A stretch of 64,000 nucleotides of DNA from assembly GCA_017608345.1 (NCBI GenBank), contig JAFCGA010000002.1, forward strand, positions 79,023-143,022. The letters run 5' to 3'. Under the pieces are notes generated by a model, which was not told the origin of the DNA, searched no databases, and saw only the letters and a program-made list of their open reading frames with translations. Positions 985 through 52,693 of the stretch are shown one piece after another (position 1 is the first letter of the stretch; each line of letters begins with the position of its first letter). The DNA comes from Candidatus Pacearchaeota archaeon (lineage in GTDB: Archaea; Nanobdellota; Nanobdellia; UBA10117; JAFCGA01). A program made the translations under genes and the position numbers.

Positions 985-1310
985 AGTAGCGAGACTATAA
1001 GCCGCCTTATGTTCTGCTCCGTGGTCGGACAGCAGACGCAAGCATTCTACTTAGCGGTCTAGGACCTTGCACTCACTCGAATCGACAAGTTTCACTCACA
1101 ACTCAGCAACCTCACCGAGGATCATCGTGCGCTAAGCATGATTGCTTTCTGTCTATATCGATTTACAGTATTAACCATAGCTAGATTTCCTAGCCGAGCT
1201 GCCTTTTCTTTCACTCCGAGAAGCGAAATCATTAGGGCGTAAGAGGGCGGACTTTCCTCAGTGCTTTGGAGATTAATCCAAGAACTCCGATAGCTTGCCG
1301 TCCCGCTACT
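985..1310 (-). ncRNA. rnpB: RNase P RNA
   Basis: The minus-strand reading contains GAGGAAAGTCCGCCC (CR-I) and GCAGAACATAAGGCGGCTTATAG (CR-IV/V-like). The termini AGTAGCGGGAC and GTCTCGCTACT pair as P1. Confidence 0.85.
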
Positions 1311-1876: not shown

Positions 1877-1909
1877 AGGTAGGATTGTGCTAGCCCGGAG
1901 GCAGTCGGA

Positions 1910-2104
1910 CTAGCACAGGCGCAGCGATTCCCGGATAAAAAGGTGAGAATTTGAGGCGTTGTCTGTTGAGTATACGTCAGCATTAGACGAAATACCTTGT
2001 AGTTTCTTCATAATCAAGTAGACTGCTTCTTCGAGATTTATTTCGGGATAGAACTGTTTAATTCGTTTGATCTCGTTGGCAAGCATCTTGTATTTGTTCC
2101 TCAT
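1910..2104 (-). CDS. Hypothetical small protein
   Basis: ORF only; convergent with the DUF1643 gene. A 7-bp hairpin (gtgctag...ctagcac, about 1888-1917) lies at the convergence point and overlaps the ORF's last codons and stop. Confidence 0.3.
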   Translation of the reverse strand: MRNKYKMLANEIKRIKQFYPEINLEEAVYLIMKKLQGISSNADVYSTDNASNSHLFIRESLRLC

Positions 2105-3587: not shown

Positions 3588-3620
3588 GATAGATTCAAAG
3601 ATCTGAATAGCATAATATAA
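3588..3620. repeat. 3'-flank arm of the 23S rRNA processing stem (pairs with 6532-6560)
   Basis: gatagattcaaagatct (3588-3604) is the exact reverse complement of 6544-6560. gcataatataa (3610-3620) is the exact reverse complement of 6532-6542. Confidence 0.8.
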
Positions 3621-3639
3621 TCGAGCTGTTAGTAACTGC

Positions 3640-6525
<2,886 letters not shown>

Positions 6526-6531
6526 CGTGTT

Positions 6532-6560
6532 TTATATTATGCAAGATCTTTGAATCTATC
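6532..6560. repeat. 5'-flank arm of the 23S rRNA processing stem
   Basis: See 3588-3620. Confidence 0.8.
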
Positions 6561-6661: not shown

Positions 6662-6846
6662 TGGACCCGGAGGGATTTTCAAGCTACAAAGTTGCCGAAG
6701 GTATATTCGGAGCGACGAAGTCGCGTAGTAAAATACCTTTTCTTTGGGCTACCTTACACCTTTCTTTTTCTAAAAGAAAGGGGCAGTTTGAACCCCCAGC
6801 CTCCTGCATGCAAAGCAGGCGTTCTACCGGGTTGAACTACAGGCCC
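6662..6846 (-). tRNA. tRNA-Ala(UGC) in the 16S-23S spacer, with an inferred 111-nt insertion (about 6676-6786) in the T-loop
   Basis: The sense strand reads GGGCCTG TA GTTC..GAAC G CCTGC TT TGC AT GCAGG AGGCT GGGGG TTCAAA [111 nt] T CCCTC CGGGTCC A. The acceptor closes with the G3:U70 Ala identity pair. Confidence 0.8.
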
Positions 6847-6964
6847 ATAGTTTTAAGACAGATTGGTCGATTTATAAGGTTTTTCTTTGGGCCACTTATC
6901 GCGAACCGAAGTTCGCGATCTGTTCGTCCGCGTACGCTTGGAATTAGCGTACAAACATGAGTAT

Positions 6965-6981
6965 AAGTAGATGAATAGCTT
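6965..6981. repeat. 3'-flank arm of the 16S processing stem (pairs with 8730-8745)
   Basis: aagtagatgaatagctt versus aagctattcatctact form 16 complementary bp bracketing the 16S gene. Confidence 0.75.
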
Positions 6982-7653
6982 AACCTTCTTTGAGTATTAA
7001 TCAGGATACTTGCAAGCAAGTATCCTGATTTTAAAAGGAGGTGATCCATCTGCAGGTTCCCCTACAGATACCTTGTGTTGACTTCGCCCGCCTCGCTGAA
7101 CCAGGATTCGACTTAACCAAGAAGTTGAGCCTCATCCCAACCCAACTCGGTTGGCGTGACAGGCAGTGTGTGCAAGGGCCAGGGACACATTCACCGCACG
7201 ATGCTAACGCACGATTACTAGGGATTTCGTTTTCACGAGGGTGAGTTGCAACCCTCGATTCGAAAAGATTGAATTTAAGGGATTGGCTTCTCCTTTCGGA
7301 GTTGCAGCCCGTTGTTTCAACCATTGCTTGCCGCGTGTAGCCCAGAGGATTCGAGGCATACTGACCTACCGTAGCCTACACCTTCCTCTCCCTTTCGAGA
7401 GCAGTCCCTTCAGTGTGCTTATTCTCAATGAGAATAGTGGCAACTGAAAGCGTAGGTCTCGCTCGTTGTCTGACTTAACAGAACACCTCACGGCACGAGC
7501 TGACGGCGGCCATGCACCATCTCTCAGCGCGTCGAGTGAGCCATTCAGGCTGACCTTCATTCTGCTGTCGCTTCTGGTAAGGTTCCGGGCGTATAATCCA
7601 ATTGAACCGCAGCACCCACCCCTTGTGGTAGCCCCCCGCCAATTCCTTTAAGT

Positions 7654-7698
7654 ATACTGTAGCTACATTTCTCTAATATTTGTAAGAAAATATAGCAA
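7654..7698 (-). other. 16S insertion 1 (45 nt, putative intron) splitting GGCTGAA | ACTTAAAGGAATTGG
   Basis: The conserved block is contiguous in ordinary archaeal 16S but interrupted here. Boundary is +/-2 nt. Confidence 0.7.
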
Positions 7699-7817
7699 TT
7701 CAGCCTTGCGACCGTACTCCCCAGGTGGCCTGCTTAACGACTTCTCTCCGACACTGCATGCTCACGAAGAACATGCAGCACCTAGCAGGCAGCGTTTACG
7801 GCTAGGACTACGAGGGT

Positions 7818-7882
7818 TATTAGGGCTCTGGAAAATAGTTTTCTTTTTCCAGGGTTTTTCTTTTTAAAAAAAGAAAAAGCCT
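7818..7882 (-). other. 16S insertion 2 (65 nt, putative intron) splitting GGATTAGAT | ACCCTCGTAGTCC
   Basis: The interrupted block is the 785-806 'universal primer' region. The insert folds into two hairpins: TTTTTCTTTTT/AAAAAGAAAAA and CTGGAAAA/TTTTCCAG. Confidence 0.75.
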
Positions 7883-7980
7883 ATCTAATCCTCTTTGATC
7901 CCCTAGCTTTCATCCCTGACCGTCAGACCCGTTCTAGTTAGACGCCTTCGCCGCTGGCGGTCCTCTGGGGATTAAAACAA

Positions 7981-8071
7981 TGTAACTGCACTTTTTCGCT
8001 GCTTTGCAGCAAGTAAAGTAGTTTCTTTTGGGCTACCTTACACCTTTTCTTTCCTAAAGAAAAGGGGCAGT
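7981..8071 (-). other. 16S insertion 3 (about 91 nt, putative intron) splitting GAGCGGTAAAA | TTGTTTTAATCCCCAGAGGACC
   Basis: It interrupts the conserved GGTAAAATCCTGTAATCC-type block and carries a module shared with the tRNA-Ala insertion. Confidence 0.7.
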
Positions 8072-8235
8072 TTTTACCGCTCCCCCCAGAATACCTCTAA
8101 CTCCTCCCGGTCTCAAGCTAAGCAGTATTTTCAGCACGCCTGACAGTTGAGCTGCCAGATTTCACTAAAGACTTACTTAGCCGGCTACGGATGCTTTAGA
8201 CCCAATAAACGTGACCACCACTAAGGGCGCCGGGA

Positions 8236-8266
<31 letters not shown>

Positions 8267-8729
8267 CCCTTTATTCCTGAAGCGTTTTGGACTCCAGAAA
8301 AGCAGACGCAAAAAGCGCCTGCACGTAGGATTCCCCCATCACGCTTGCGCGCATTGTGGAGTATTCAGAACTGCTGCACCCCGTAGGGCTGGGAGCCTTA
8401 TCTCAGTCTCCCTCTCAGGGCTAGGACTCTCATCCCCCTTACAGATCTTAGGTTTGGTGAGCCGTTACCTCACCAACAGCCTAATCTGCCGCCAACTCAT
8501 CCTATGGCGCCGAAGCTTTGGATAAAAGCGCATTCCAGCCTCTTTTATCTATCGGGAATTATCTTCAGTTTCCCGAAGTTATGCCCGACCATAGGGTAGA
8601 TTATTGACGTGTTACTGAGCCTTTCGCCATGATTTCTCATAGACTTGCATGTCTCATGGATCCTACTAGCAGTGGTCTCCCGCAGGATAAACGGGAATTG
8701 TGATCGCATTAAAATAGAATTGGCTATTA

Positions 8730-8745
8730 AAGCTATTCATCTACT
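8730..8745. repeat. 5'-flank arm of the 16S processing stem
   Basis: See 6965-6981. Confidence 0.75.
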
Positions 8746-8835
8746 AATTCATACCAATTTCTAACTGGTATACATAACAAACACAAATCCGACAAAAGTT
8801 GTCTTCACGTGTGCAATTCTATTGTAGAACTAGCC

Positions 8836-8850
8836 TTTAAAAATCTTTCT
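8836..8850 (-). promoter_or_regulatory. Candidate rRNA operon promoter (BRE AGAAAG + TATA ATTTTTAAA on the minus strand)
   Basis: This is the only strong TATA-like element upstream of the 16S processing stem. It is a guess from sequence only. Confidence 0.3.
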
Positions 8851-8891
8851 TATTGAATGCCGCAGATTTAGTAATTTGCAATTTAATTAGG

Positions 8892-8920
8892 GGTCTGACT
8901 GAAGGCGTATTTTGGTTATT
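8892..8920. repeat. 29-nt direct repeat, copy 1 (ggtctgactgaaggcgtattttggttatt)
   Basis: Exact second copy at 9010-9038, 118 bp apart. Confidence 0.9.
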
Positions 8921-9009
8921 GAACGTCGCGGGATTAATACTTTGCATTTTAATGCGGTGTTCAATTCCAAATCGCCGTTGGACCAATAATACCTAGCACT
9001 TTAGTGCTA

Positions 9010-9038
9010 GGTCTGACTGAAGGCGTATTTTGGTTATT
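9010..9038. repeat. 29-nt direct repeat, copy 2; overlaps the stop codon of the antiporter gene
   Basis: Identical to 8892-8920. Confidence 0.9.
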
Positions 9039-10251
9039 TTCTGAGCTTTCGCGGTAGTTTGTTTGCTATTGATGGCAGCATAAATACTGAGAAAGAGGTT
9101 ACTAATATTATTGAGAATACTATCGCGATTATTAATTCTGGGTTTGGAAACTGAGATGAGTAAGACAATGCTAGAACTGCGCAAACTATTCCTCTCGGTC
9201 CGCCGATTAGTTGAAGTTTCCTTACTGCCGGGTCCAGCTTGCTTGAAGTTATTCGAATTGCTAAGAATCTTGCTAGAAGTATGCTTGCTACAAATACTGC
9301 GATTATACCGAAAGTCCAAAGACCGTAACTTAGGAAAACATCGAATCTCAGGATTGCTCCGAGAATTACATACACAAATGTTACTAGCAATAATTCCATC
9401 TCTCCGCCAAATGAGTGAATGATCTTCGGAAGTTGAGGTTTAGCATTACCAAATATTATTCCTACAATTAATGCCGCTGCGATTCCACTAGCTCCGATTA
9501 ATTCTGTTATTGCGTATATTAAGAATACGGCACCGAGCGATAAGATATGTGGTTTTTGATCTGGACTAAGTTTCTGAATTATTTTAAAAATTACATACCC
9601 ACAAACTGCACCCATTCCTATTCCTACGAAGATATTATAGAAGAACGTGCGTGCTGCGAAGGCAACCGAGCCCTTTCCAATTTCCATAACATTTACAACT
9701 ACTATAGCGATAATTACTGCAGGTATGGAGTTCATTGTTGCTTCTAAGTCTAGACTATCTTTGATGAATTTTGAAATTTTCAGATTTTCCAGTGCGGGCG
9801 CTAGAATAGTCAGATCGGTTGATGCAACTAATGCTCCGAGCAGAGCAGATAATAACCAGTCAAATCCGAGCAAGAATCTGGCAGCTAGCATAACTAATCC
9901 AATTGTAATTAATACTCCGACTACTGCTAATCCCGCTGCAGTTTCCAGCTTTTTTTCTAAACCATGTAATTTAATCCCATAACCTACATCGAATAATATG
10001 ACTACTAATGCAAATGTGACAACTGCGTGTATAATTGGTTCAAATTCTGCGGGCGTGAACACCTTAGTTAGTGGTCCGAGGATTATTCCTAGAATTAATA
10101 GCAGAATTATAAGCGGAGACTTTGTTCTTTTTGATAAGATTGTTAAAATTACTCCGAGAATTATAATTGCTCCGACGATGCCAATGGTTGCAGCAGATGA
10201 GATCATAAAGAAGTCTATACTTGAGAATATATAATGGTTTTGGAATCCCAC
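9034..10251 (-). CDS. Cation:proton antiporter (Na+/H+ exchanger family)
   Basis: 405 aa with about 11-12 TM segments and typical CPA-family composition. An 8-bp hairpin cctagcac/gtgctagg at 8992-9011 lies just downstream. Confidence 0.75.
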   Translation of the reverse strand: MGFQNHYIFSSIDFFMISSAATIGIVGAIIILGVILTILSKRTKSPLIILLLILGIILGPLTKVFTPAEFEPIIHAVVTFALVVILFDVGYGIKLHGLEKKLETAAGLAVVGVLITIGLVMLAARFLLGFDWLLSALLGALVASTDLTILAPALENLKISKFIKDSLDLEATMNSIPAVIIAIVVVNVMEIGKGSVAFAARTFFYNIFVGIGMGAVCGYVIFKIIQKLSPDQKPHILSLGAVFLIYAITELIGASGIAAALIVGIIFGNAKPQLPKIIHSFGGEMELLLVTFVYVILGAILRFDVFLSYGLWTFGIIAVFVASILLARFLAIRITSSKLDPAVRKLQLIGGPRGIVCAVLALSYSSQFPNPELIIAIVFSIILVTSFSVFMLPSIANKLPRKLRK

Positions 10252-10268
10252 GTTCTTGATCAGACGGA

Positions 10269-10490
10269 TTATCCCTTAATATATTGAAATGATATTAAAA
10301 AGTATAATATGCTTGTCATCGTAATAAACAGTGCTAAGGTAAGAAGGTTTTCTAAGAGGGTTATCGATATCCCTGCCGAACGCATGATTGTAAGACTGAT
10401 GATAAACGCAACAAATAAGATAATGCTAACTAATAATCCTCTGATTCGGTGTTTTATAATCCACCCCTCATATTTTTTGTTTAAACTCAT
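10269..10490 (-). CDS. Small membrane protein
   Basis: 73 aa with two hydrophobic helices. Confidence 0.35.
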   Translation of the reverse strand: MSLNKKYEGWIIKHRIRGLLVSIILFVAFIISLTIMRSAGISITLLENLLTLALFITMTSILYFLISFQYIKG

Positions 10491-10498
10491 TTAATTAG

Positions 10499-10641
10499 TG
10501 CAGGGGACAGGGTTCGAACCTGCGTAGGCACTAAGCCACTGGGTCCTAAACCCAGCCCGTTCAATCGCAACCAACGCTAAGCTATCTTCTTTCCGCCAGC
10601 GCTTTCTTAAAGGGCTGCTTTGACCACTCCGGCACCCCTGC
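10499..10641 (-). tRNA. tRNA-Leu(UAG) with an inferred 57-nt insertion (about 10561-10617) in the D-loop
   Basis: GCAGGGG TG CCG GAGTGGTCAAAG [57 nt] A CGG G CTGGG TT TAG GA CCCAG, followed by a long variable arm, GCAGG TTCGAAC CCTGT CCCCTGC A. Confidence 0.75.
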
Positions 10642-10679
10642 TTAATAAGATTGAATAGAATTCGGTTTAAAAAGTTAAC

Positions 10680-11024
10680 CTATAAGTATGCATTGATATA
10701 TGGGCCGATTTTTGTTTTTAATATTCTAATTGCGTTATCTATATTCTCAATCTCTACTCTGTTTTCAGTAAGTTGGAGCTGTGATTGAAGCTCTAAGTAT
10801 GCTCTGTTTATGTGTGGGCATGCAGTCTGTATGTATTCGGCAATCGGAGAATCTCCAATGAATGTTTTAAATAGCGCGAACATCAAGTCACGAGTTCTCT
10901 CCTCAAGAAACCCTTCATTTTTTCTAGCGACTTTTAATTTATTAGTTAACGTGAGATTACAGAACTGACCATCTACCATCACTATTCCGAAACCAATTGG
11001 TTTTTCTAAGGGAGTTAAGGGCAT
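10680..11024 (-). CDS. Hypothetical protein
   Basis: ORF only. Confidence 0.4.
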   Translation of the reverse strand: MPLTPLEKPIGFGIVMVDGQFCNLTLTNKLKVARKNEGFLEERTRDLMFALFKTFIGDSPIAEYIQTACPHINRAYLELQSQLQLTENRVEIENIDNAIRILKTKIGPYINAYL

Positions 11025-11081
11025 AACATCGCTAGGGTGTTATAGCTTATAATTATTTAGATAATAAAAGCGATAGTAGAA

Positions 11082-11201
11082 TTATTTCTTCTTCTGTCTA
11101 CGCAGTCTCTTTTTCTTATTAAGCTTCTTTCTGTACCACTTCCAGCGTCCTCGATAGCCAGACTTGTTCTTCTTTTTCCACTTCCGAGAGGATCTTTTCA
11201 T
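11082..11201 (-). CDS. Possible very basic 39-aa protein (MKRSSRKWKKKNKSGYRGRWKWYRKKLNKKKRLRRQKKK)
   Basis: Below the ORF-track cut-off. It fills an otherwise empty 250-nt gap. The composition recalls tiny ribosomal proteins, but I do not recognise the family. Confidence 0.3.
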   Translation of the reverse strand: MKRSSRKWKKKNKSGYRGRWKWYRKKLNKKKRLRRQKKK

Positions 11202-11273
11202 AGTTTTTATTTTGCGTAAGGAACGCTACTTATATCTCCGGCAGAGAGTTTTATAAAGATTTTGCTAAAAATC

Positions 11274-11507
11274 TCAGTCTTCTTCCGCAGCGTCAATAGC
11301 GCGATTTATTTCAGCGACTATCTGATCGGCTTTAAGTCCGTGCATTTTAGCAACATTCGCGAGAGTTCCAAAGTTAACCGAGCCGCATCCACTACATCCG
11401 GCGCAGCCTAGCCCATGCATCATAAGTACTTCTTCTGCAGCAGGAATGTTTAATACTTCTTCTATTGGAGTATCTTTAGTTATTGTCATGGGATAAGCTC
11501 TGAGCAT
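11274..11507 (-). CDS. DUF1858 / hybrid-cluster-protein-associated redox disulfide domain protein
   Basis: TKDTPIEEVL...HGLGCAGCSGC...LANVAKMHGL. The real start is probably the Met at 11489. Confidence 0.65.
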   Translation of the reverse strand: MLRAYPMTITKDTPIEEVLNIPAAEEVLMMHGLGCAGCSGCGSVNFGTLANVAKMHGLKADQIVAEINRAIDAAEED

Positions 11508-11513
11508 CCCTTT

Positions 11514-12191
11514 TTAAAGCTTGCCATTTCTTTCTTTTCGTAAAATAGCTCTTCCCTCTTCGAGTAAATAGATCTCACCAATATTACTTATTTGACCATT
11601 ATTATAAATAAGTGCACTTCTTTCTGGAATAGCATAAATTGTCTTATCCTCTGCTTTAGATAACTTCTGTATTTCTGGCTTCCCCTTACCCGCATGTATT
11701 GGATCTGAGCTACCGTAATGAACCGTAACATAAATATCTGCTAATCCAAGACCTGGGAGAAGAGTTGTTCTCGGTTCCAAATCTTGTCCTTCTACAGCGA
11801 CGTATTTTTTACAAAAAGCAAGTGCTCCAGCACTATTACCAATAATAACTCCCTTGTATTCTTTCAGAATCTGAATTAGTTTATGATCTCTGATTCGATT
11901 AACTAGTAAGCGAGGATTCCCTCCAGGCAAATTAATTATGTTTGAGGTTTTTATCTTCTTTATTAGCTCTTTTTTAGAATCTGAGAGCTCAGCGAAGATG
12001 CTCTTTTTTGCACCTAACTCCCGGAAAAAGTCAGAAGTTATCTTTCGATAAGATTTATCCTCATGTTTTCTCGTCCAAGGGAAAGTCAAAATAATTGGAG
12101 ATTTGCCTGCATCAGAGAATGCTTTTTTGTAAATATCTGCTCCTTCTCGTTTTCTTGTACTTGCTCCGCCAATAAAATAAAGCTTTGGCAT
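11514..12191 (-). CDS. Peptidase S51 (dipeptidase E-like) family protein
   Basis: GGNPRLL and GNSAGA motifs. I moved the start to MPKLYFIGG (12191), 1 nt after the argS stop. Confidence 0.7.
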   Translation of the reverse strand: MPKLYFIGGASTRKREGADIYKKAFSDAGKSPIILTFPWTRKHEDKSYRKITSDFFRELGAKKSIFAELSDSKKELIKKIKTSNIINLPGGNPRLLVNRIRDHKLIQILKEYKGVIIGNSAGALAFCKKYVAVEGQDLEPRTTLLPGLGLADIYVTVHYGSSDPIHAGKGKPEIQKLSKAEDKTIYAIPERSALIYNNGQISNIGEIYLLEEGRAILRKERNGKL

Positions 12192-12192
12192 T

Positions 12193-13896
12193 TTACATCT
12201 CCGCAACTTCTTCAATTCCGAGCAAATTCAAAGCATTTTTTAGCGTATGAGCAAATGCCTTCACAAGAGCTAACCTTGCTCCCTGTAACTTCTTTTCAGC
12301 TCGAATTACTGGACAATTCTCATAAAAGCTAGAAAACAGTTGCGCTAGTTCGTAGGCGTAATTCGCAACCAACTGCGGCGAATAAGAATCAGCTGCTTTT
12401 TCAACAATTTCCGGAAAAAGAGCTATCTTTTTGACTAGCTCAAATTCATAGGGTTTAACTAATAATTCTAAGCTTGCTTTGCTTGGTTTTGCTTCTGATT
12501 TTTGCAAGATTTTGTTAGATCTTACTAATGCATACTGTAAATATGGTCCAGTGTTGCCTTCTAACGAAAGAACTTCGTCCCAATTAAAGCTAATCTGTTT
12601 GGTTGGAGAAACCCGAAGTTCGAAATATCTTATTGCTCCAACAGCGATTTTCTCAGCTAGTTTTAGCGGAGTTTTCTTTTTAGAGATTATTTTTTCTATC
12701 CCTTCATCTAGAATAGCGTCGGCCGGTAGCGTTGTTCCTGATCGAGTTGAGATCTTAACTTTATCGAAATTAACAAAAGATAAGAAAACAACATCGAGGG
12801 TCTTTGATTTTAGTATTCCAAAAATCTCGAGGAGTTTCTTAAGCTCAACAGCTTCGATTTTATGGTCTTCTCCTAGTACGATTATGTTCTTATCAGCAAG
12901 GCTTAGCTTATATTTATGATACGCTAGATCTCTAGTAATATAAACTGATGTTCCATTAGCTCTCAAAAATACAGTTCCTCCGCCCCTACGCTCGAATCCG
13001 TATTTGCTTAGATCCACAGCATGAGCGCCTTCTTCTAATATTTTATATTCGGGTAAGGCCTTTAGTTTATTAGCTATTTTCTTTTGCTCACCTGCTGCTA
13101 CAAGATCGCTTTCAAAGTCGAACTCATCAAAATTTATTCCAAATCGAGCAAGCATCTTTTTCTGTCCTTCCAGGCAAGTTTTGGCAACTTTGTTTAGCTC
13201 TGAAGCGTATTGCTTATTATTTTCTGCTGCGATTAAGAAATCATCAATTTCTTTCATTAGTTTCGGATTTTTCTCAACCAGCTTCATTGCGGTGACATAA
13301 ACGAACATAATTTTGAAGTCTGGGTTGTTCTTATATTTAGAGAATTTCTTAATCAGCGACGCAGAAGTTTTAATTTTATTTTTTATTCCCCAGTTGATTA
13401 TCGCGATTTGCTTGCCCATATCATTGACATAGTAATGCGTTTCTACATTGTAGCCGATTGCTTTGTATAATCTTACTAACGTATCTCCTATGAAAGAATT
13501 TCTTATACGTCCGACATGAGTTGGTCCGGAGGGATTAGTTGAAGTATGCTCGATTATTAATTTCTTGTTCTTCCCCTTATTTGATTTTCCGTAATTCTTG
13601 CTAACTTGTTTGAGTATTTCTGCAGCATATTTGCCTTCATCAACAAAGAAATTCAAATAAGGTCCGGCAATTTCTACTTTTTTAAAAATAGAGCTTTTCG
13701 GAATTGCTAGCTTTTTTCTTATTTGCATAGCAATCTCGCCCGGATTTTTCTTTAGCTTCTTAGATAAAATAAAGCAAGGGAAAGCTAAGTCTCCTAATTT
13801 TGAGTCAGGTGGGATCTCGATTAAATTTATGATCTGATTCTTGTTCAGCGAAATTAGCTTGCTTAGAATGCTAGCTGCTTGGGATTTGATATCCAT
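12193..13896 (-). CDS. argS: Arginine--tRNA ligase
   Basis: HTSTNPSGPTHVGRIRN, DLAYH, and the C-terminal anticodon-binding domain ending ..EVAEM. Confidence 0.9.
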   Translation of the reverse strand: MDIKSQAASILSKLISLNKNQIINLIEIPPDSKLGDLAFPCFILSKKLKKNPGEIAMQIRKKLAIPKSSIFKKVEIAGPYLNFFVDEGKYAAEILKQVSKNYGKSNKGKNKKLIIEHTSTNPSGPTHVGRIRNSFIGDTLVRLYKAIGYNVETHYYVNDMGKQIAIINWGIKNKIKTSASLIKKFSKYKNNPDFKIMFVYVTAMKLVEKNPKLMKEIDDFLIAAENNKQYASELNKVAKTCLEGQKKMLARFGINFDEFDFESDLVAAGEQKKIANKLKALPEYKILEEGAHAVDLSKYGFERRGGGTVFLRANGTSVYITRDLAYHKYKLSLADKNIIVLGEDHKIEAVELKKLLEIFGILKSKTLDVVFLSFVNFDKVKISTRSGTTLPADAILDEGIEKIISKKKTPLKLAEKIAVGAIRYFELRVSPTKQISFNWDEVLSLEGNTGPYLQYALVRSNKILQKSEAKPSKASLELLVKPYEFELVKKIALFPEIVEKAADSYSPQLVANYAYELAQLFSSFYENCPVIRAEKKLQGARLALVKAFAHTLKNALNLLGIEEVAEM

Positions 13897-13934
13897 AAGA
13901 TATAATTCAGCTGCAAGTTTATAATCTTAATTAT

Positions 13935-15083
13935 TTAGAACTTAAATCTCTTAATCTCAGCTCGCTTGATACTATCGCTAATTAGCATTTTCTGGCGCTT
14001 AATATTCTTTTCAATCGTTTCAATTTCGCTAAGCTTAGCTCTAGTTTCAGGATGCTTAGCAATCATAAATGAGCAGCAATCTGGATAGGGTTGAATAGAA
14101 TATTCATAAGTTCCAATTTTCTTTGCGATATCAACAATTTCTTCCTTGTTCATGCCAATCAGAGGAGCAAGAATTGGTAATTCTGCGGCAGAATAAATGC
14201 AGGTTATATTCTCAATTGTCTGTGAAGCGACCTGCCCGATGCTATCTCCCGTAATGATTCCTTTAATCTTTTCAGTCTTAGATATTTCATTGATTATTTT
14301 CATCATGAAGCGCCGATAAATTATCATTCTGAATTTTGCAGGAACATTTGCAATTATTTCTTGCTGGATTTTCTCAAAAGGAACAATGTAAATCTTCGAA
14401 TTTAGTTGGAATTTAGTTAGCTGTTTAACTAGATCATCCAGCTTTGATAAAATCCCTCTGCTAACTGTTGTGTTATGAACGTGCACGAAAACGATTTCGC
14501 AGCCGCGCTTCATTAGCAGAAATGCGCTTACTGGACTGTCTATTCCGCCGGATAGCGAGCAAGCTATTTTGCCGCTAACGCCAACAGGTAATCCGCTAAC
14601 TCCTTGATATTTCTTGCAGAAAAGTAGTGCTTCTTTCTCACCAATTTCAATATAGAGTCTCAGCTCCGGAGTCTTAACGTCCACTTTTTTCTTTAATTTC
14701 GTTATGATATGATCGCCCAGCTCGCAATTTAATTGCTGTGAAGTTAGTTTGAATTTCTTATTAGATCTTTTTGTATCTACCTTGAATGTTTTGAATTTCT
14801 CTTCTTTCAAGAGTTTAATTGAATCAGCTTTAATTGATTTTAGATCTAAAGTTGTCTTAACAGCGAAGGAGAAATTAGCTATCCCTGGCAGTCTTTCTAG
14901 AATTTGTTTTATTTTTTCGAGACCCTCTTTTTTATCTAGCTCACAGATTATTCTTCCATAGCGTCGGTAAGCTTCTTTTTCGATAGCTTTGTTAATATTT
15001 TTAACAAGTCGATTTTCAAAAAAAGCTCTATTCTTACCTTTAGTTCCGATCTCGCTGTAATGAATTACTATACTGTTGTACAT
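13935..15083 (-). CDS. thiI: tRNA 4-thiouridine synthase ThiI (THUMP + PP-loop)
   Basis: SGGIDS PP-loop with an N-terminal ferredoxin-like/THUMP region. Confidence 0.85.
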   Translation of the reverse strand: MYNSIVIHYSEIGTKGKNRAFFENRLVKNINKAIEKEAYRRYGRIICELDKKEGLEKIKQILERLPGIANFSFAVKTTLDLKSIKADSIKLLKEEKFKTFKVDTKRSNKKFKLTSQQLNCELGDHIITKLKKKVDVKTPELRLYIEIGEKEALLFCKKYQGVSGLPVGVSGKIACSLSGGIDSPVSAFLLMKRGCEIVFVHVHNTTVSRGILSKLDDLVKQLTKFQLNSKIYIVPFEKIQQEIIANVPAKFRMIIYRRFMMKIINEISKTEKIKGIITGDSIGQVASQTIENITCIYSAAELPILAPLIGMNKEEIVDIAKKIGTYEYSIQPYPDCCSFMIAKHPETRAKLSEIETIEKNIKRQKMLISDSIKRAEIKRFKF

Positions 15084-15120
15084 GTCTTTTTACTTGTTTT
15101 TTGGTTTAAAAAGCTAGTGC

Positions 15121-15801
15121 TTAGACGGTCCAAGTGAGAAACATAAATATCGCGTAAAGGATTACTCCGGCGAGGAAATATTTCGGATCGCCCTTGCGCC
15201 CAATCGGAAGCATATCTCTTATTGCTATATAAAATAGCGCCCCTACGACGAATCCGAGGAAAATGTGATATACGACTGGAGCAATATTAATATAAATTGC
15301 TAGAAAAACTCCGATAAGTGTCGATGCAGATAATAATACTTTAATAATTGTCTTCTCGCTTATGCTGACGTGAATCTCTTTTAGAGATATTTTACTTAGT
15401 ATTGTGTGGAATGTAATTGGAATAAAGAAAATAGTTCCCATTAGTATGCTGGTTCTGGTGAGCTTTACTAATATAATACCAATAAGTAAATAATATACGA
15501 AAAAGATTATAGCATGGGCTTCAGCTAGTTCGGTTTTAGCTTTTCTTGCCGGATGGTTCCAAATGTGCTTTTCAATTAAATGCAGAACACTAAATCCCAC
15601 TAATACGAATACAAATGCTAGCTTATGGAGATGTTCTACTGTTTCTAATACTTCTGGTAGGAGGAATAAGAAAATGTAAGATATGGTTATGCCTCCTGCG
15701 AAAGACATTAAGCTGACTCTCCCTGCAGTGAATTTTTTGTAAAAGAACTTGTTGAAGTAGTGAATTAGCGCAAGAATTGCACCGAAAATTATTGCTAGCA
15801 T
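15121..15801 (-). CDS. Polytopic membrane protein (possibly a ZIP-like metal permease)
   Basis: 7-8 TM segments with a His-rich loop, HLIEKHIWNH. The functional call is weak. Confidence 0.4.
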   Translation of the reverse strand: MLAIIFGAILALIHYFNKFFYKKFTAGRVSLMSFAGGITISYIFLFLLPEVLETVEHLHKLAFVFVLVGFSVLHLIEKHIWNHPARKAKTELAEAHAIIFFVYYLLIGIILVKLTRTSILMGTIFFIPITFHTILSKISLKEIHVSISEKTIIKVLLSASTLIGVFLAIYINIAPVVYHIFLGFVVGALFYIAIRDMLPIGRKGDPKYFLAGVILYAIFMFLTWTV

Positions 15802-15860
15802 TTAATGAACTTGTAGTTAGAAGTATATAATTCTTTTTGATTATAACACTTACTTAAGCG

Positions 15861-16793
15861 CTATATTTTACTAAGAAACTCTTCCAAAGTTATTTTAGAG
15901 AACAACTGATAATGCTTGATTTGCTCACGCATCCACTTTTTAATACTCTTCTCTAAATTCGGATGCCTTCGGCACTGTTCTATGCACCAGTCCACTGCTC
16001 CGAGAATTCGGAGTTTAATGAAATAATAGATTGCTTTTTTCTCCTCCAAATTTAGTTTAATTCTAGATTGATATGCTTGCAGTAATAGTTTTATTTGGTT
16101 CCAATAAACTAATTTGATTTTAATTAGCATGTGCGCAATGAATATTGCTGATTCCGCAGCATAGAATCCATAATGAGCATCACCCCAATCGATAAGAACT
16201 ATCTTGTTTTCTCTCGACCGAAGCATATTTGATGCTTGAACATCCCCATGTATTACTCCTTCTTTTAGCTTAGATAATTCTAATTTCTTGATCGAAGCTA
16301 TCGTTTTTTTAAACTCGCCCGTAAGATCTATTTCGGGAATTGTTGATGTTATTTCTGTTGCAAACGGACCATAGCCTTCGCGCTTACCGCTTATTTCTGA
16401 AAGTGCTAGATGCATCTTTGCTAAATCTATTCCAAGAGCACTTATTTCTTCATTTGTAAATTTTACCGGATAGTTACCTTCGAAGAAATCTTGTAAGAAC
16501 ATAGTTTTCTTTTTGTAAGTTATATATGTAGTACCGGTCCTAGTTTTAATCAACTTAGGTGTAGCAATTTTCTTATCAGATGCTAGTGCTTGTATTTTAA
16601 TCTCGAATCTCGAATGGTCTCGATACTGTCCTTCGAAGATTTTTAGAACGTATTTTCCTTTCGAAGTTCGGATGAAATACACCGTTGTCTCAAGTGCTTG
16701 AGAACTGTGTCTTGCAGAATGGAATTCACCAATACAATAATTGCTTAATATTTTCTCGAAATCCGCTTTCACTAGTTTTGTTAATATAGTCAT
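15861..16793 (-). CDS. Aminoglycoside phosphotransferase/choline-kinase-fold small-molecule kinase
   Basis: HGDVQASNML catalytic loop and IDWGDA metal-binding motif. Confidence 0.7.
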   Translation of the reverse strand: MTILTKLVKADFEKILSNYCIGEFHSARHSSQALETTVYFIRTSKGKYVLKIFEGQYRDHSRFEIKIQALASDKKIATPKLIKTRTGTTYITYKKKTMFLQDFFEGNYPVKFTNEEISALGIDLAKMHLALSEISGKREGYGPFATEITSTIPEIDLTGEFKKTIASIKKLELSKLKEGVIHGDVQASNMLRSRENKIVLIDWGDAHYGFYAAESAIFIAHMLIKIKLVYWNQIKLLLQAYQSRIKLNLEEKKAIYYFIKLRILGAVDWCIEQCRRHPNLEKSIKKWMREQIKHYQLFSKITLEEFLSKI

Positions 16794-16827
16794 GTTTAGT
16801 TATTCTGAATCGAATATAAAAAAGTAG

Positions 16828-16947
16828 TGCCCCCAGCGGGATTTACCTCGAACGTACCGTTCGTATAAATGCTCGTCACGCTCGCATTTGAACCCACGTC
16901 ACTGGCTTGAAAGGCCAGCATGCTTGGCCGGGCTACACTATGGGGGC
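16828..16947 (-). tRNA. tRNA-Glu(UUC) with an inferred 45-nt insertion in the T-loop
   Basis: GCCCCCA TA GTGT..GCAT G CTGGC CT TTC AA GCCAG TGAC GTGGG TTCAAAT [45 nt ending GGTAAAT] CCCGC TGGGGGC A. Confidence 0.75.
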
Positions 16948-17040
16948 ATGAGTTTTCACAAGTAAAATTGGTTTAAAAAGATTTGGCTTTAAGGCATATT
17001 AAAGTAAGCAAAGGGAAGAGTAAATTATTATAATTCTGAA

Positions 17041-17733
17041 TTAAATTTTTCTGAAGCTTACGATCCAGTGCGCGTTTAACCCTTCTTTTCTGGAATAAAC
17101 GATTTCTTGCATACTTAAAATCATTAAAGAATTTCTTGCTGCTAACTCCTCGAGCTCTTCTCTAGAATAATGATGTAATATTATTCCTGCTTTCTTCCCA
17201 GCTTTTTGTACAAAGGTAATTCCTCTATCTGGGACACGCTCTCCGGGCAACTGTCTCATCTTAGTCGATCTCACGGATAATAGAAATAACCCGTTCTTCT
17301 TTAGAACTCTGCTAACTTCAGAGAATGATTTTTCAGCACCCTTCCAATCGTTATGCTGAAAAACACGCATGCTTAAAATATAATCGAAAGTAGCTTTTTT
17401 ATAAGGTATTTTATAAAAACTTCCTACCCGAACATCTGCTTCGAGCTTATCTTCTTTTAATATTTCCTTAAGTTGTGCTATCGCACTTTTAGAAATATCA
17501 ATTCCGTAAGTTTTGAAGCCTAATTTGGCAACGTATTTAGTATTTCTACCATTTCCGCATCCGATATCTAAAATACTTCCCTTCTTGAATTCATCTCCGT
17601 ATCTGTTTAAGAAATTTCGGACGTGCGGATCTACGTTTCGCTTAAGATAAGGCTTAGTCTTAGTATATCTTGTATCCCATATTTTTTTAGCCGCGTCTTC
17701 GCGGGATTTAAATTTAGCAGTTATATTTATCAT
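17041..17733 (-). CDS. Class I SAM-dependent methyltransferase
   Basis: ILDIGCGNGRN motif I. Confidence 0.8.
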   Translation of the reverse strand: MINITAKFKSREDAAKKIWDTRYTKTKPYLKRNVDPHVRNFLNRYGDEFKKGSILDIGCGNGRNTKYVAKLGFKTYGIDISKSAIAQLKEILKEDKLEADVRVGSFYKIPYKKATFDYILSMRVFQHNDWKGAEKSFSEVSRVLKKNGLFLLSVRSTKMRQLPGERVPDRGITFVQKAGKKAGIILHHYSREELEELAARNSLMILSMQEIVYSRKEGLNAHWIVSFRKI

Positions 17734-17805
17734 TATATGTTCGTAATGTATGTTTATTATATGTCTTATTGGATATTATTCCGCCGTCAGTTTTTAAAAA
17801 GAATA

Positions 17806-17981
17806 TGGCCGAGATGAGATTTGAATTCGTGCACCAATTCCAGTTTAAGGGAAAGGGCGGCTCACGACCTCTGGTTGGCTTAAACGCATCGTAGCCGATG
17901 CGTGTCATATAAGACCAGCGCTCTAACCAGATTACTCACTTTCTCTTTTTCTAAAAGAGAAAAGCTCTAAGCTACTCGGCC
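17806..17981 (-). tRNA. tRNA-Ile(UAU) with three inferred insertions: D-loop 17931-17965, canonical 37/38 site 17877-17907, T-stem/T-loop junction 17826-17860
   Basis: Exons of 16+23+16+20 nt assemble into a 75-nt cloverleaf: GGCCGAG TA GCTT AGACTGGTTA GAGC G CTGGT CTTATAA ACCAG AGGTC GTGAG TTCAAAT CTCAT CTCGGCC A. At the 37/38 insertion, CTTA/TAAG forms the 4-bp helix of a bulge-helix-bulge (BHB) splice motif. Confidence 0.7.
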
Positions 17982-17984
17982 AAG

Positions 17985-18214
17985 CGCCCGTGGTCAGATT
18001 TTCTAAAGCCTGGGAACCAAGGTTCCCTTCTTTCTTCCAGAGAGAAATCCCCGAGATTTCTCTTGGCCACGCGAAACTTAACGAGTTTCGCTTGGTTTCC
18101 CGAGGGTTTTTCTTTCTTCGGGAAGAAAGAAAAAGGCTCTTTGAACTGACGGCCTCACGGTTTCTAACATAAGGCTAACAGCCGTGCGCTATAACCAGAC
18201 TAAGCTACACGGGC
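17985..18214 (-). tRNA. tRNA-Asn(GUU) with an inferred 14-nt anticodon-loop insertion (18162-18175) and a 141-nt T-loop insertion (17999-18139)
   Basis: GCCCGTG TA GCTT..AGC G CACGG CT GTT A [14] A CCGTG AGGCC GTCAG TTCAAA [141] T CTGAC CACGGGC G. It lies only 3 nt upstream of the tRNA-Ile 5' end. Confidence 0.65.
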
Positions 18215-45016: not shown

Positions 45017-46006
45017 TTAGAATTCTTTATTTGGTATTTCTTTCATAAATTCAGAAATAGCGTCTGCTGGCGGTCTATTTTCAAATAAAATAGAATAAAT
45101 CATTTCTATTAATGGTAGCTTTAAATCATGCGTTTTGGCTAGATCCTTAGCAATCTTAGTAGCAGAAACGCCTTCTGTAACTTGAGTCATTTCTGATTGA
45201 CCATCGCTCAAGGATAGTCCTTTTCCGATTTTCTCGCCAAGAGTTCGATTTCTGCTATGCTTGCTAGTCGAAGTTACAAATAAATCCCCCAGTCCACCTA
45301 AGCCAGTCATCGTTAGTGGCTGCGCACCTAATTTAACTGCTAGTTGAGAGATTTCAGCTAGCCCACGAGTTACTAGCGCAGATTTTGTGTTTGGGCCGAA
45401 TCCAAGGCCGTCGCAAATGCCGGCAAGTAGTGCGATTATGTTCTTGAAAGCTCCACCTAGCTCAACGCCTTTGACGTCGTTACTTAGGTAAATTTTGTAA
45501 TAAGGTGCTGAAAAAGTAGCTTGCGCAGTCTTTAGAGCTTCATCGTCTTCGGAAGCAAAAACTACGACTGTTGGAATCTCCGCTGCAAGCTCGTTAGCAA
45601 TAGATGGACCGCCTATAGCAATTATTGGGTTATTCGGAAGCTCTTCTCGGATGACTTCGGACATTAATTTATTTGTGTTTTGTTCTAATCCTTTGGCTAC
45701 GTCCACAATGATCTGATTCTCTTTTATGAATTGTGCAGCTTGTTTTGCAACCACTCTGACAATGTGTGAAGGGACTGCGAGGAGAATTATTTCTGCTTCA
45801 GAAATTGCTTCTTCGATATTTAGCGTCACGATTAATGCTTTTTCTAGCTTTATTCCTGAAAGATATTTCTTATTTTCATTATCCTTGTTTATGCTTTCAA
45901 AGACTTCCTTTTCGATAGTCCAAGTGACTACTTCATGCTTGTTTTTAGTAAGAAGATTAGCTAAAGTAGTGCCCATGTTGCCAGCACCGAGAACTGCTAT
46001 TTTCAT
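45017..46006 (-). CDS. gpsA: NAD(P)H-dependent glycerol-3-phosphate dehydrogenase (bacterial GpsA type)
   Basis: MKIAVLGAGNMGT.., GGAFKNIIALLAGICDGLGFG.N, LVTRGLAEI, GLGDL.VT..S..SRNR. Its stop codon abuts the secY stop with 0 nt between them. Confidence 0.85.
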   Translation of the reverse strand: MKIAVLGAGNMGTTLANLLTKNKHEVVTWTIEKEVFESINKDNENKKYLSGIKLEKALIVTLNIEEAISEAEIILLAVPSHIVRVVAKQAAQFIKENQIIVDVAKGLEQNTNKLMSEVIREELPNNPIIAIGGPSIANELAAEIPTVVVFASEDDEALKTAQATFSAPYYKIYLSNDVKGVELGGAFKNIIALLAGICDGLGFGPNTKSALVTRGLAEISQLAVKLGAQPLTMTGLGGLGDLFVTSTSKHSRNRTLGEKIGKGLSLSDGQSEMTQVTEGVSATKIAKDLAKTHDLKLPLIEMIYSILFENRPPADAISEFMKEIPNKEF

Positions 46007-46533: not shown

Positions 46534-46668
46534 CGTCTCAAAAAGAGAAAAAGGATTTTCCGCCTCCGCTTTGCGAGTCGGTTTGTAGACCCACGGGGAA
46601 AGGGGAGTTGTGGAAGTTGCTGAAGGTGTCTTAGAAAGTTTTTTAAGTTTTAGTTTGGCCTCTCAACT

Positions 46669-52577: not shown

Positions 52578-52669
52578 TAATATGAAAATACAACGGCTCA
52601 AATGAAACAAGAATTATATTTAACGCATCTGGAGTCAGGGCTAAATGCCTTTCTCTTTTGGATGCCTAG

Positions 52670-52693
52670 TTTTCTCTTTCGCGAAAGAGAAAA
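52670..52693 (+). promoter_or_regulatory. Perfect 24-nt palindrome TTTTCTCTTTCGCGAAAGAGAAAA abutting the scpA ATG
   Basis: 12-bp stem. It has the same arm sequence type as the tRNA/rRNA insertion hairpins. Confidence 0.5.

Follow-up and report, generated by a model that had tools for sequence, protein, structure and literature searches.

Introns that resemble one another yet occupy different positions in different tRNA genes are best known from the Thermoproteales, where the pattern has been read as transposition (Fujishima 2010; PMC4090602, PMC4033280); in the available portion of a review, this transposition is inferred from sequence similarity alone and its mechanism is given as not known (PMC4090602). 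Here we describe eleven insertions in the tRNA and 16S rRNA genes of a 64,000-nucleotide stretch of contig JAFCGA010000002.1 (hereafter the window), deposited under Candidatus Pacearchaeota archaeon. Seven of these insertions start with a shared motif. It is probably the conserved module at the 5' end of a single family of small bulge-helix-bulge (BHB) introns, free of open reading frames (ORFs), that has recently multiplied in tRNA and 16S hairpin loops. The transposed tRNA introns of the Thermoproteales are the closest precedent, with similar introns across tRNA genes and apparent gain by transposition in both cases. Compared with the accessible parts of those accounts, the present system differs in its host, a member of the DPANN archaea and not a crenarchaeon, in the occupation of two 16S loops, in its defined terminal module (a GC clamp, h', followed by a pyrimidine/purine (Y/R) hairpin), and in the empty sites found in relatives.

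Three further systems invite comparison. The short 16S introns of the Thermoproteales (Jay and Inskeep 2015; PMC4496867) are likewise ORF-less BHB introns at conserved sites, shorter than 50 nt, and one of their loci, 908, matches that of 16S-1 in the window. However, introns at different Thermoproteales loci are less than 20% identical and too different to compare, whereas here homology with tRNA introns is clear; and their spread has been tied to homing endonucleases or co-conversion, whereas the introns of the window contain no ORFs and occupy two other loci (~690 and ~793) (PMC4496867). Among DPANN archaea, Candidatus Micrarchaeum acidiphilum ARMAN-2 shares with the window introns at 53/54 and 59/60, relaxed motifs of hBH type, several introns per tRNA and a tRNA-Ile(UAU), and its EndA, as far as the available text goes, is of the epsilon2 type and cuts relaxed BHB motifs (PMC3239211, PMC3488258). 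The accessible part of the ARMAN-2 description mentions neither sequence families nor sharing with rRNA introns (PMC3239211). In the split tRNAs of Nanoarchaeum equitans, according to the excerpted account, a BHB forms at the junction by pairing of flanking sequences, much as the h' clamp would do here; there, separate genes are joined in trans, whereas the present genes are contiguous and the clamp spans 3-6 bp (PMC4033280). A literature search returned no report of paralogy between tRNA and rRNA introns, a weak negative given that key primary papers were not covered. What is new here is the lineage, the sharing of introns between tRNA and 16S genes, the defined terminal module and the documented empty sites.

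Eleven insertions and a 5' motif shared by seven

The window contains a minus-strand rRNA operon (16S 7036-8698; tRNA-Ala in the 16S-23S spacer; 23S 3609-6543), followed by four further tRNA genes within 11.5 kb. Insertions were delimited by reading the minus strand and anchoring on conserved exon sequence, giving one in tRNA-Ala (T-loop), three in 16S, one in tRNA-Leu (D-loop), one in tRNA-Glu (T-loop), three in tRNA-Ile and two in tRNA-Asn (Table 1). A first-pass annotation, made from the letters alone, had placed eleven insertions at these minus-strand positions, and its placement is borne out. Their removal yields cloverleaf tRNAs (Ala-TGC, Leu-TAG, Glu-TTC, Ile-TAT, Asn-GTT), the 16S gene without them (~1461 nt) fits the Rfam archaeal SSU model end to end, and the Rfam alignments themselves show inserts of 93 nt (16S) and 62 nt (tRNA-Leu). 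The extra segments are absent from the mature consensus, as is the case for BHB introns. In the 23S gene the whole model is covered in 2935 nt, so a large insertion is absent there. Splice-motif geometry moved four of the proposed boundaries by 1-2 nt (16S-3, 16S-2, Leu_D and Ile-1; the revised coordinates are those of Table 1). Two of these shifts have independent support: the Rfam alignment gives one of the 93 inserted nucleotides of 16S-3 to the mature RNA, and the Ile-1 boundary agrees with the D-loop GCTTAGTCTGGTTAGAGC (also given as GCTTAGTCTGG) of an orthologous gene in relative L020.

Table 1. Introns of the window, the RNA genes that carry them and one candidate copy elsewhere
Feature	Positions	Strand	Remarks
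Ala_T intron, 111 nt, T-loop 59/60	6676..6786	-	motif CTGCCCCTTT 6786-6777; Y/R hairpin 6781-6759
16S-3 intron, 92 nt, helix-23 loop (~position 690)	7980..8071	-	motif CTGCCCCTTT 8070-8061; Y/R hairpin 8065-8043; boundary revised
16S-2 intron, 65 nt, in GGATTAGAT|ACCC (~790 loop)	7818..7882	-	motif GGCTTTTTCTTT 7881-7870; Y/R hairpin 7878-7855; boundary revised
16S-1 intron, 45 nt, before ACTTAAAGGAATTGG (~E. coli position 908)	7654..7698	-	no motif
Leu_D intron, 59 nt, D-loop	10561..10619	-	motif CAGCCCTTT 10617-10609; short CTTT/AAAG hairpin; predicted boundary, revised
Glu_T intron, 45 nt, T-loop	16841..16885	-	no motif, no strict BHB core; absent in relatives
Ile-1 intron, 35 nt, D-loop	17932..17966	-	Y/R hairpin 17962-17940; absent in relatives; boundary revised
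Ile-2 intron, 31 nt, canonical 37/38	17877..17907	-	strict hBHBh' core; no motif
Ile-3 intron, 35 nt, 53/54	17826..17860	-	motif CCGCCCTTT 17860-17852; absent in relatives
Asn-1 mini-intron, 13-14 nt, 37/38	18162..18175	-	starts GCCTT; absent in relatives
Asn-2 intron, 141 nt, T-loop 59/60	17999..18139	-	motif GAGCCTTTTTCTTT; 13-bp Y/R hairpin 18134-18107; absent in relatives
16S rRNA gene, three introns	7036..8698	-	Rfam RF01959, 1322.8 bits; 1663 nt vs 1478-position model
pre-tRNA-Ala(TGC), 16S-23S spacer	6662..6846	-	ARAGORN and Rfam matches; spliced cloverleaf with G3:U70 pair
pre-tRNA-Leu(TAG)	10499..10641	-	Rfam tRNA 43.8 bits, 62-nt D-loop insert; spliced cloverleaf
pre-tRNA-Glu(TTC)	16828..16947	-	weak Rfam match; spliced cloverleaf; uninterrupted orthologs in L014, L020
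pre-tRNA-Ile(TAT), three introns	17806..17981	-	spliced cloverleaf; L017 and L020 orthologs with canonical intron only
pre-tRNA-Asn(GTT), two introns	17985..18214	-	spliced cloverleaf; uninterrupted 74-nt orthologs in L017, L020, L021
Candidate solo or degenerate module outside an RNA gene	52645..52693	+	TGCC+TTTCTCTTTT, then hairpin TTTTCTCTTT-CGCG-AAAGAGAAAA

The pattern C.GCCCC?TTT has exactly four matches on the two strands of the window, each of them opening an insertion (Ala_T 6786, 16S-3 8070, Leu_D 10617, Ile-3 17860); about 2.2 matches would be expected anywhere in the window by chance. Similarly, G[GC]CTTTTTCTTT has exactly two matches, both at insertion starts (16S-2 7881, Asn-2 18137), and Ile-1 starts with A-GCTTTTCTCTTTT. 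The loose form GC[CT]{0,3}TTT is common, at 360 sites or 0.28% of positions, mostly antisense to purine-rich coding sequence, and the window holds 84 runs of GC followed by eight pyrimidines. The motif by itself therefore means little, and its position is what counts: the loose form begins in the first 4 nt of six of the eleven insertions (binomial P ~1e-9, for a motif defined after the fact). The initial observation that the motif marks insertion starts is thus upheld, the exact forms occurring only there in the window and their placement being non-random, and so is the report that it is missing from Glu_T, 16S-1 and the two anticodon-loop introns. All seven motif introns lie at non-canonical positions. 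Across 239 kb of sequence from relatives the exact motif was matched at a single locus, which gave two hits since its contig is present in duplicate; the locus lies within a gene-annotated stretch.

The motif is often followed by a specific class of hairpin. Nine perfect hairpins of at least 10 bp occur in the window; the 5' arm is all-pyrimidine in six and all-purine in none, and Markov shuffles produced ~0.85 Y/R hairpin loci even at a threshold of 7 bp or more. Five of the six stand directly behind the motif (in Ala_T, 16S-3, 16S-2, Ile-1 and Asn-2), and all five stems are perfect despite C-G pairs at differing positions. The first-pass description of a Y-tract/R-tract hairpin after the motif therefore holds in its long form for five insertions, while Leu_D and Ile-3 have short versions only. 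No Y/R hairpin of at least 8 bp was found in the 239 kb from relatives, which have lower GC (31-34%). The sixth hairpin (52670-52693) directly precedes the ATG of scpA (52694), and its arm is nearly identical to that of Ile-1; this hairpin could be either an isolated copy of the intron module or an element involved in translation. An interpretation of this hairpin as a BHB intron was rejected, its BHB matches being at chance level. A triple helix formed by the tracts was also dropped, as the tracts are mirror-symmetric and their Watson-Crick and Hoogsteen registers indistinguishable; Asn-2 has one Y-tract and two R-tracts, the 52.6-kb element two Y-tracts and one R-tract.

Homology among the introns and the absence of several from relatives

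Similarity among the introns extends well beyond the motif. An alignment of Ala_T with 16S-3 that starts at the splice site covers ~60 nt with ~52 identities (57-60 nt, 84-87%; z = 25.7), a repeat search recovers the same pair independently (57 nt, 84% identity), and both contain an exact 18-nt core, AAGGTGTAAGGTAGCCCA, for which scans of genome and metagenome contigs returned three chance matches each, bacterial or unrelated and on non-matching contigs. Three further pairs are significant: 16S-2/Asn-2 (z = 10.3), Ala_T/Ile-1 (z = 8.4, with an identical 15-nt stretch across the loop) and 16S-2/Ile-1 (z = 6.3). Together the four pairs link five introns, Ala_T, 16S-3, 16S-2, Ile-1 and Asn-2. Ala_T and 16S-3 furthermore have three helices in common. 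Among the 23 base pairs that are homologous in these helices, 18 are unchanged, one shows a one-sided and four a two-sided change, and none is broken (counted by script, as MAFFT misaligned the hairpin modules). These compensatory changes, with no broken pair, indicate that the fold has been maintained since the two copies separated.

Introns of different genes and positions within one genome are thus similar to each other, which is what defines a transposed intron family, and on this sequence comparison convergence is ruled out for the five clear members. The first-pass annotation had attributed the conservation to the inserted element, as one propagating family, and not to the exon context; the extended homology, the unrelated host sites and the empty orthologous sites described below all agree with it. 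It had also stated that the host sites differ. This is correct for the T-loop, the D-loop, position 53/54 and the two 16S hairpin loops, but the exon contexts are not wholly unrelated, since they share A-rich bulges and four exon nucleotides complementary to the intron 3' end.

A comparison with three sets of relatives (L014-16, L017 and L020/L021; TopoVI-A 73-74% identical) shows when some of these introns arrived. The relatives conserve the gene order NMD3-eIF1A-KH-TopoVIB-TopoVIA ... tRNA-Asn, tRNA-Ile, tRNA-Glu ... ArgRS. In them tRNA-Asn (74 nt) and tRNA-Glu (75-76 nt) are both uninterrupted, and tRNA-Ile(TAT) has the canonical intron only, which is homologous to Ile-2 (TGAC...TTTAAGC; L017, L020). 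Ile-2 is therefore ancient, and the sole ancient intron is motif-less. The empty orthologous sites imply that Asn-1, Asn-2, Ile-1, Ile-3 and Glu_T were gained in the lineage of the window, and the motif introns open to this comparison are recent gains. The closest ArgRS relative (53% identity, L001-L005) had neither tRNAs nor synteny to offer.

These data bear on a reading without transposition, in which independent introns were homogenised at their 5' ends by gene conversion or converged under AT-rich composition. It would explain why middles and lengths differ strongly within pairs (65 vs 141 nt in 16S-2/Asn-2, 92 vs 111 nt in 16S-3/Ala_T) and why the similarity of Leu_D and Ile-3 is confined to the first 9-10 nt, and it would suit the ~38% GC of the window. 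Nevertheless, the relatives are lower still in GC and lack such hairpins, every arm-biased hairpin of the window is Y-first, and the exact core of 18 nt has no low-complexity character. Inspected by eye, the two members of each pair seem related at their 3' ends as well (GUAGCUUGAAAA vs GCAGUUACAU; CCCAGGCUUUAGAAAA vs CCAGAGCCCUAAUA), and at least five introns appeared in one lineage with none of them in relatives. We consider this reading very improbable.

Splice-site architecture and possible routes of spread

Each junction was scanned for a BHB core consisting of a 4-bp helix H and 3-nt bulges cut after the second nucleotide, a convention that reportedly goes back to Marck and Grosjean 2003. 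The canonical tRNA-Ile intron at 37/38 served as a positive control and was recovered, the anticodon stem forming helix h. In eight of the eleven insertions a core lies no more than 2 nt from the exon-defined boundary, against 1.7 expected from shuffled introns (P ~1.5e-5), and this evidence counts because the exon boundaries were fixed independently. The bulges and helix typical of BHB introns, or relaxed forms of them, are thus present, with Asn-1, Asn-2 and Glu_T relaxed or unclear. By eye, Asn-1 and Asn-2 have a relaxed BHB only, with three of four central pairs each (in Asn-2, AGCC/GGCT offset by 2 nt). Asn-1 (GCCTTATGTTAGAA) resembles the fused 5' and 3' ends of an intron of the Asn-2/16S-2 type (GAGCCTTTTT...GGCTTTAGAAAA), although the sequence is very short.

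BHB-constrained folds lie 0-4.4 kcal/mol above the minimum free energy; in those of 16S-3, 16S-2, Leu_D, Ile-1 and Ile-3, the GC-rich bases of the motif belong to h'. The last six intron nucleotides are site-specific, four being complementary to exon positions -6 to -3 and the other two belonging to the bulge. The resulting pairings in H are TTCA/TGAA in Ala_T (an hBH core on the T-stem, bulges AA|C and AA|T, with weak and offset h' pairing), GTAA/TTAC in 16S-3 (HBh', bulges AA|A and AT|T, h' CUGC/GCAG), TTAG/CTAA in 16S-2 (HBh', h' GGC(UUU)/(AGA)GCC), CGTG/CACG in Ile-3 (HBh', h' CGCC/GGUG), GGTC/GATT in Leu_D (HBh', two G-U pairs, h' GCAGCC/GGUUGC) and GCTT/GAGT in Ile-1. Ile-1 consists essentially of an h' made by the Y/R hairpin itself (GCTTTTCTCTTTT/AAAAGAGAAAGT), followed by the guide GAGT and AA. 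In the motif-less 16S-1 the core is hBHBh' (GCTG/CAGT), and the constrained fold is the minimum-free-energy fold. A K-turn in a GG-UGUAA-GG bulge was considered and dropped, no G-A/A-G pairs being present.

In these models, the motif comprises three elements: the third nucleotide of a bulge, the GC-rich strand on the 5' side of h', and the first part of the hairpin. Nucleotide 1 would complete the 5' bulge; the next 3-6 nt (NGCC, GC) would form h' together with a tract of GGC/GGU type close to the 3' end; and the T-rich tract would be the 5' arm of an A-U-rich Y/R hairpin seated directly on h', with the variable middle beyond it. Folded compactly in this way, the intron would show both splice sites in 3-nt bulges flanking H, where EndA would cut and from which RtcB would join the exons. 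The conserved element would then act as a folding module that presents both splice sites, with a 3' tip tailored to its host.

The first-pass annotation had left room for a shared recognition determinant, and the motif could indeed be a sequence-specific signal for EndA or an accessory protein at non-canonical introns, with unrelated introns converging on GCC and a U-tract. Such a signal would account for a conserved 5' strand (C-N-GCCC-TTT) whose partners vary in sequence and register (GCAG, GGTTGC, GGTG) and for the non-canonical placement of all seven motif introns; in addition, an extra EndA loop (L3) in several DPANN lineages is associated with more disrupted tRNA genes (PMC5829648). Still, 16S-1 and Glu_T are non-canonical too and yet have no motif, and homology over 50-60 nt cannot come from convergence on a 10-nt site. 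We know of no sequence requirement of EndA. In the accessible parts of two sources the enzyme is described as recognising BHB structure (PMC3239211, PMC5829648). Nor is a shared determinant needed, given that the same precursors contain motif-less introns (Ile-2, Asn-1, 16S-1, Glu_T) and that the GC part is explained as a strand of h'. We give this explanation little credence.

Archaeal RNA polymerase terminates at oligo-T tracts, and the motif was also considered as a mimic of a tRNA 3' end followed by such a terminator. The relatives' tRNA-Ile ends in CCTGCCCA-TTTT and their tRNA-Asn in GGCG-CTTTTTCTT. The resemblance is suggestive, but the idea was dropped; it would imply premature termination in the rRNA operon. 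On the minus strand, runs of T5-T7 lie inside 16S-2 (7870-7881) and Asn-2 (18126-18137), the former upstream of tRNA-Ala and 23S in the same operon.

How the family spread can be approached from what the introns contain. At 13-141 nt they are too short for a homing-endonuclease ORF, and none holds a LAGLIDADG or other ORF. Between 6500 and 19000 no group I or group II ribozyme or other Rfam family was matched inside the introns at E <= 10, and viral similarity was absent from exact 17-mer matches to IMG/VR and from blastn searches of INPHARED phages. Relatives have a free-standing 368-aa ORF with a weak LAGLIDADG_3 match beside TopoVI-A (L012 2987-4093) and intein-containing genes, namely RadA (L014 1-1005) and an 874-aa ORF (L019 664-3288); a further relative has a counterpart of this ORF with a DUF87 domain. 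Endonucleases of the homing type thus circulate in the clade.

A mobile element acting at the DNA level, hairpin-forming or similar to a miniature inverted-repeat transposable element (MITE), could also have produced such a family if its copies persist in RNA genes where a BHB permits their removal. The intergenic hairpin before scpA, with GCC and a Y-tract ahead of its Ile-1-like arm, would be one of its copies, perfect palindromes would fit an intermediate in the form of a DNA hairpin, and a review supposes that archaeal introns are gained at the DNA level (PMC4090602). Against this, five of the six copies lie in stable-RNA genes, which make up ~8% of the window, similarity begins within ~1 nt of the splice site, and the 3' end of each copy is complementary to its own exon. 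The boundaries show no terminal inverted repeats or target-site duplications by eye, the window ORFs scanned include no transposase, and in place of the many intergenic copies of a MITE the 64 kb hold a single candidate outside RNA genes. An origin of this kind seems improbable to us.

We favour instead a route through RNA, in which the excised intron would integrate at a BHB formed with a new target loop, with later fixation in DNA. Copying through the excised intron is preferred because homology starts at the splice site and four intron nucleotides must pair with each new exon. In its most developed form, which we regard as rather unlikely, the family would be a mobile element that acts at the RNA level, without a protein of its own, and cycles through excision, circularisation, BHB formation in trans and re-integration. 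In the circle, the h' clamp would close a 7-nt loop displaying the 4-nt 3' guide, which would pair with a T-loop, a D-loop or the 16S ~690/~790 loop to make a BHB in trans. Cutting by EndA and re-joining by RtcB would then integrate the intron, and a DNA copy of the product would follow, with the conserved GC clamp and Y/R hairpin as the cis-acting core of the cycle. If true, this would be the first documented BHB intron to move between tRNA and rRNA genes without a homing endonuclease.

Several points weigh against a single, recently multiplied intron family. Firstly, Leu_D and Ile-3 are tied to it by the 9-10-nt motif only, and 5' parts could become alike through gene conversion among introns already in place, with no need for transposition. 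The perfect palindromes, moreover, could stem from a DNA-level mechanism and not from selection on the RNA. Secondly, Asn-1, Asn-2 and Glu_T have no strict BHB core, and BHB geometry alone is cheap, with 107 full motifs per 10 kb of coding DNA. Finally, the census covers 64 kb of one genome on both strands (128 kb), recency is established for the Asn, Ile and Glu introns only, and the window ORFs scanned with Pfam include no EndA, RtcB or reverse transcriptase.

Genomic setting and implications

The host genome is archaeal, Woesearchaeota-like (DPANN), AT-rich and of mesophile type. The best named relatives of its SecY and TopoVI-A come from Candidatus Woesearchaeota and Nanoarchaeia metagenome-assembled genomes, and further relatives, represented by contigs of only 1.6-6.5 kb, reach identities of 87% for SecY and 81-86% for TopoVI-A. 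An ORF at 45017-46006 (-) strongly matches bacterial-type NAD-dependent glycerol-3-phosphate dehydrogenase (GpsA), which is unusual in an archaeon. The archaeal RNase P RNA lies at 985-1310 (-) with 69.7 bits (E = 1.7e-18), below the Rfam gathering score of 84; a 65-nt stretch containing GAGUGAAAGAAAAGGCAG stands where the model has 14 positions, and the default scan missed the gene. Upstream of 16S there is a 52-nt direct repeat (81% identity; 8869-8920 and 8987-9038) with a 10-bp hairpin inside it (8991-9012), and a perfect 15-bp hairpin (6999-7030) immediately follows the 16S 3' end; these are probably promoter or processing-stem elements. Two GC-rich intergenic stretches (1887-1935 (+) and 46559-46610 (+); 65-70% in 40 nt), neither with an Rfam match, are possible unannotated small RNAs.

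In the window and in relatives (L017 20652-20765; L020 15516-15629) the anticodon of tRNA-Ile is UAU, which the accessible text of one source reports as the AUA-decoding solution of ARMAN lineages that lack TiaS (PMC3239211). ARAGORN wrongly calls the L020 and L021 copies of this gene tRNA-Ala.

The introns affect how such genomes are seen. Standard tools detected only tRNA-Ala and tRNA-Leu and missed the other tRNAs of the window, in the rest of which a search for additional tRNA genes found none. Furthermore, the conserved 16S stretches GGATTAGATACCC and AAACTYAAAGGAATTG, which we take to be the sites of widely used 16S primers, are split by two of the three introns of this gene. With tRNAs missed and primer sites interrupted, genomes of this kind will be under-annotated and under-detected. 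More generally, how BHB introns are gained is a standing question, and this locus makes it testable, as its intron family is young, is defined at both ends, occurs in tRNA as well as 16S genes, and can be compared with empty orthologous sites in relatives.

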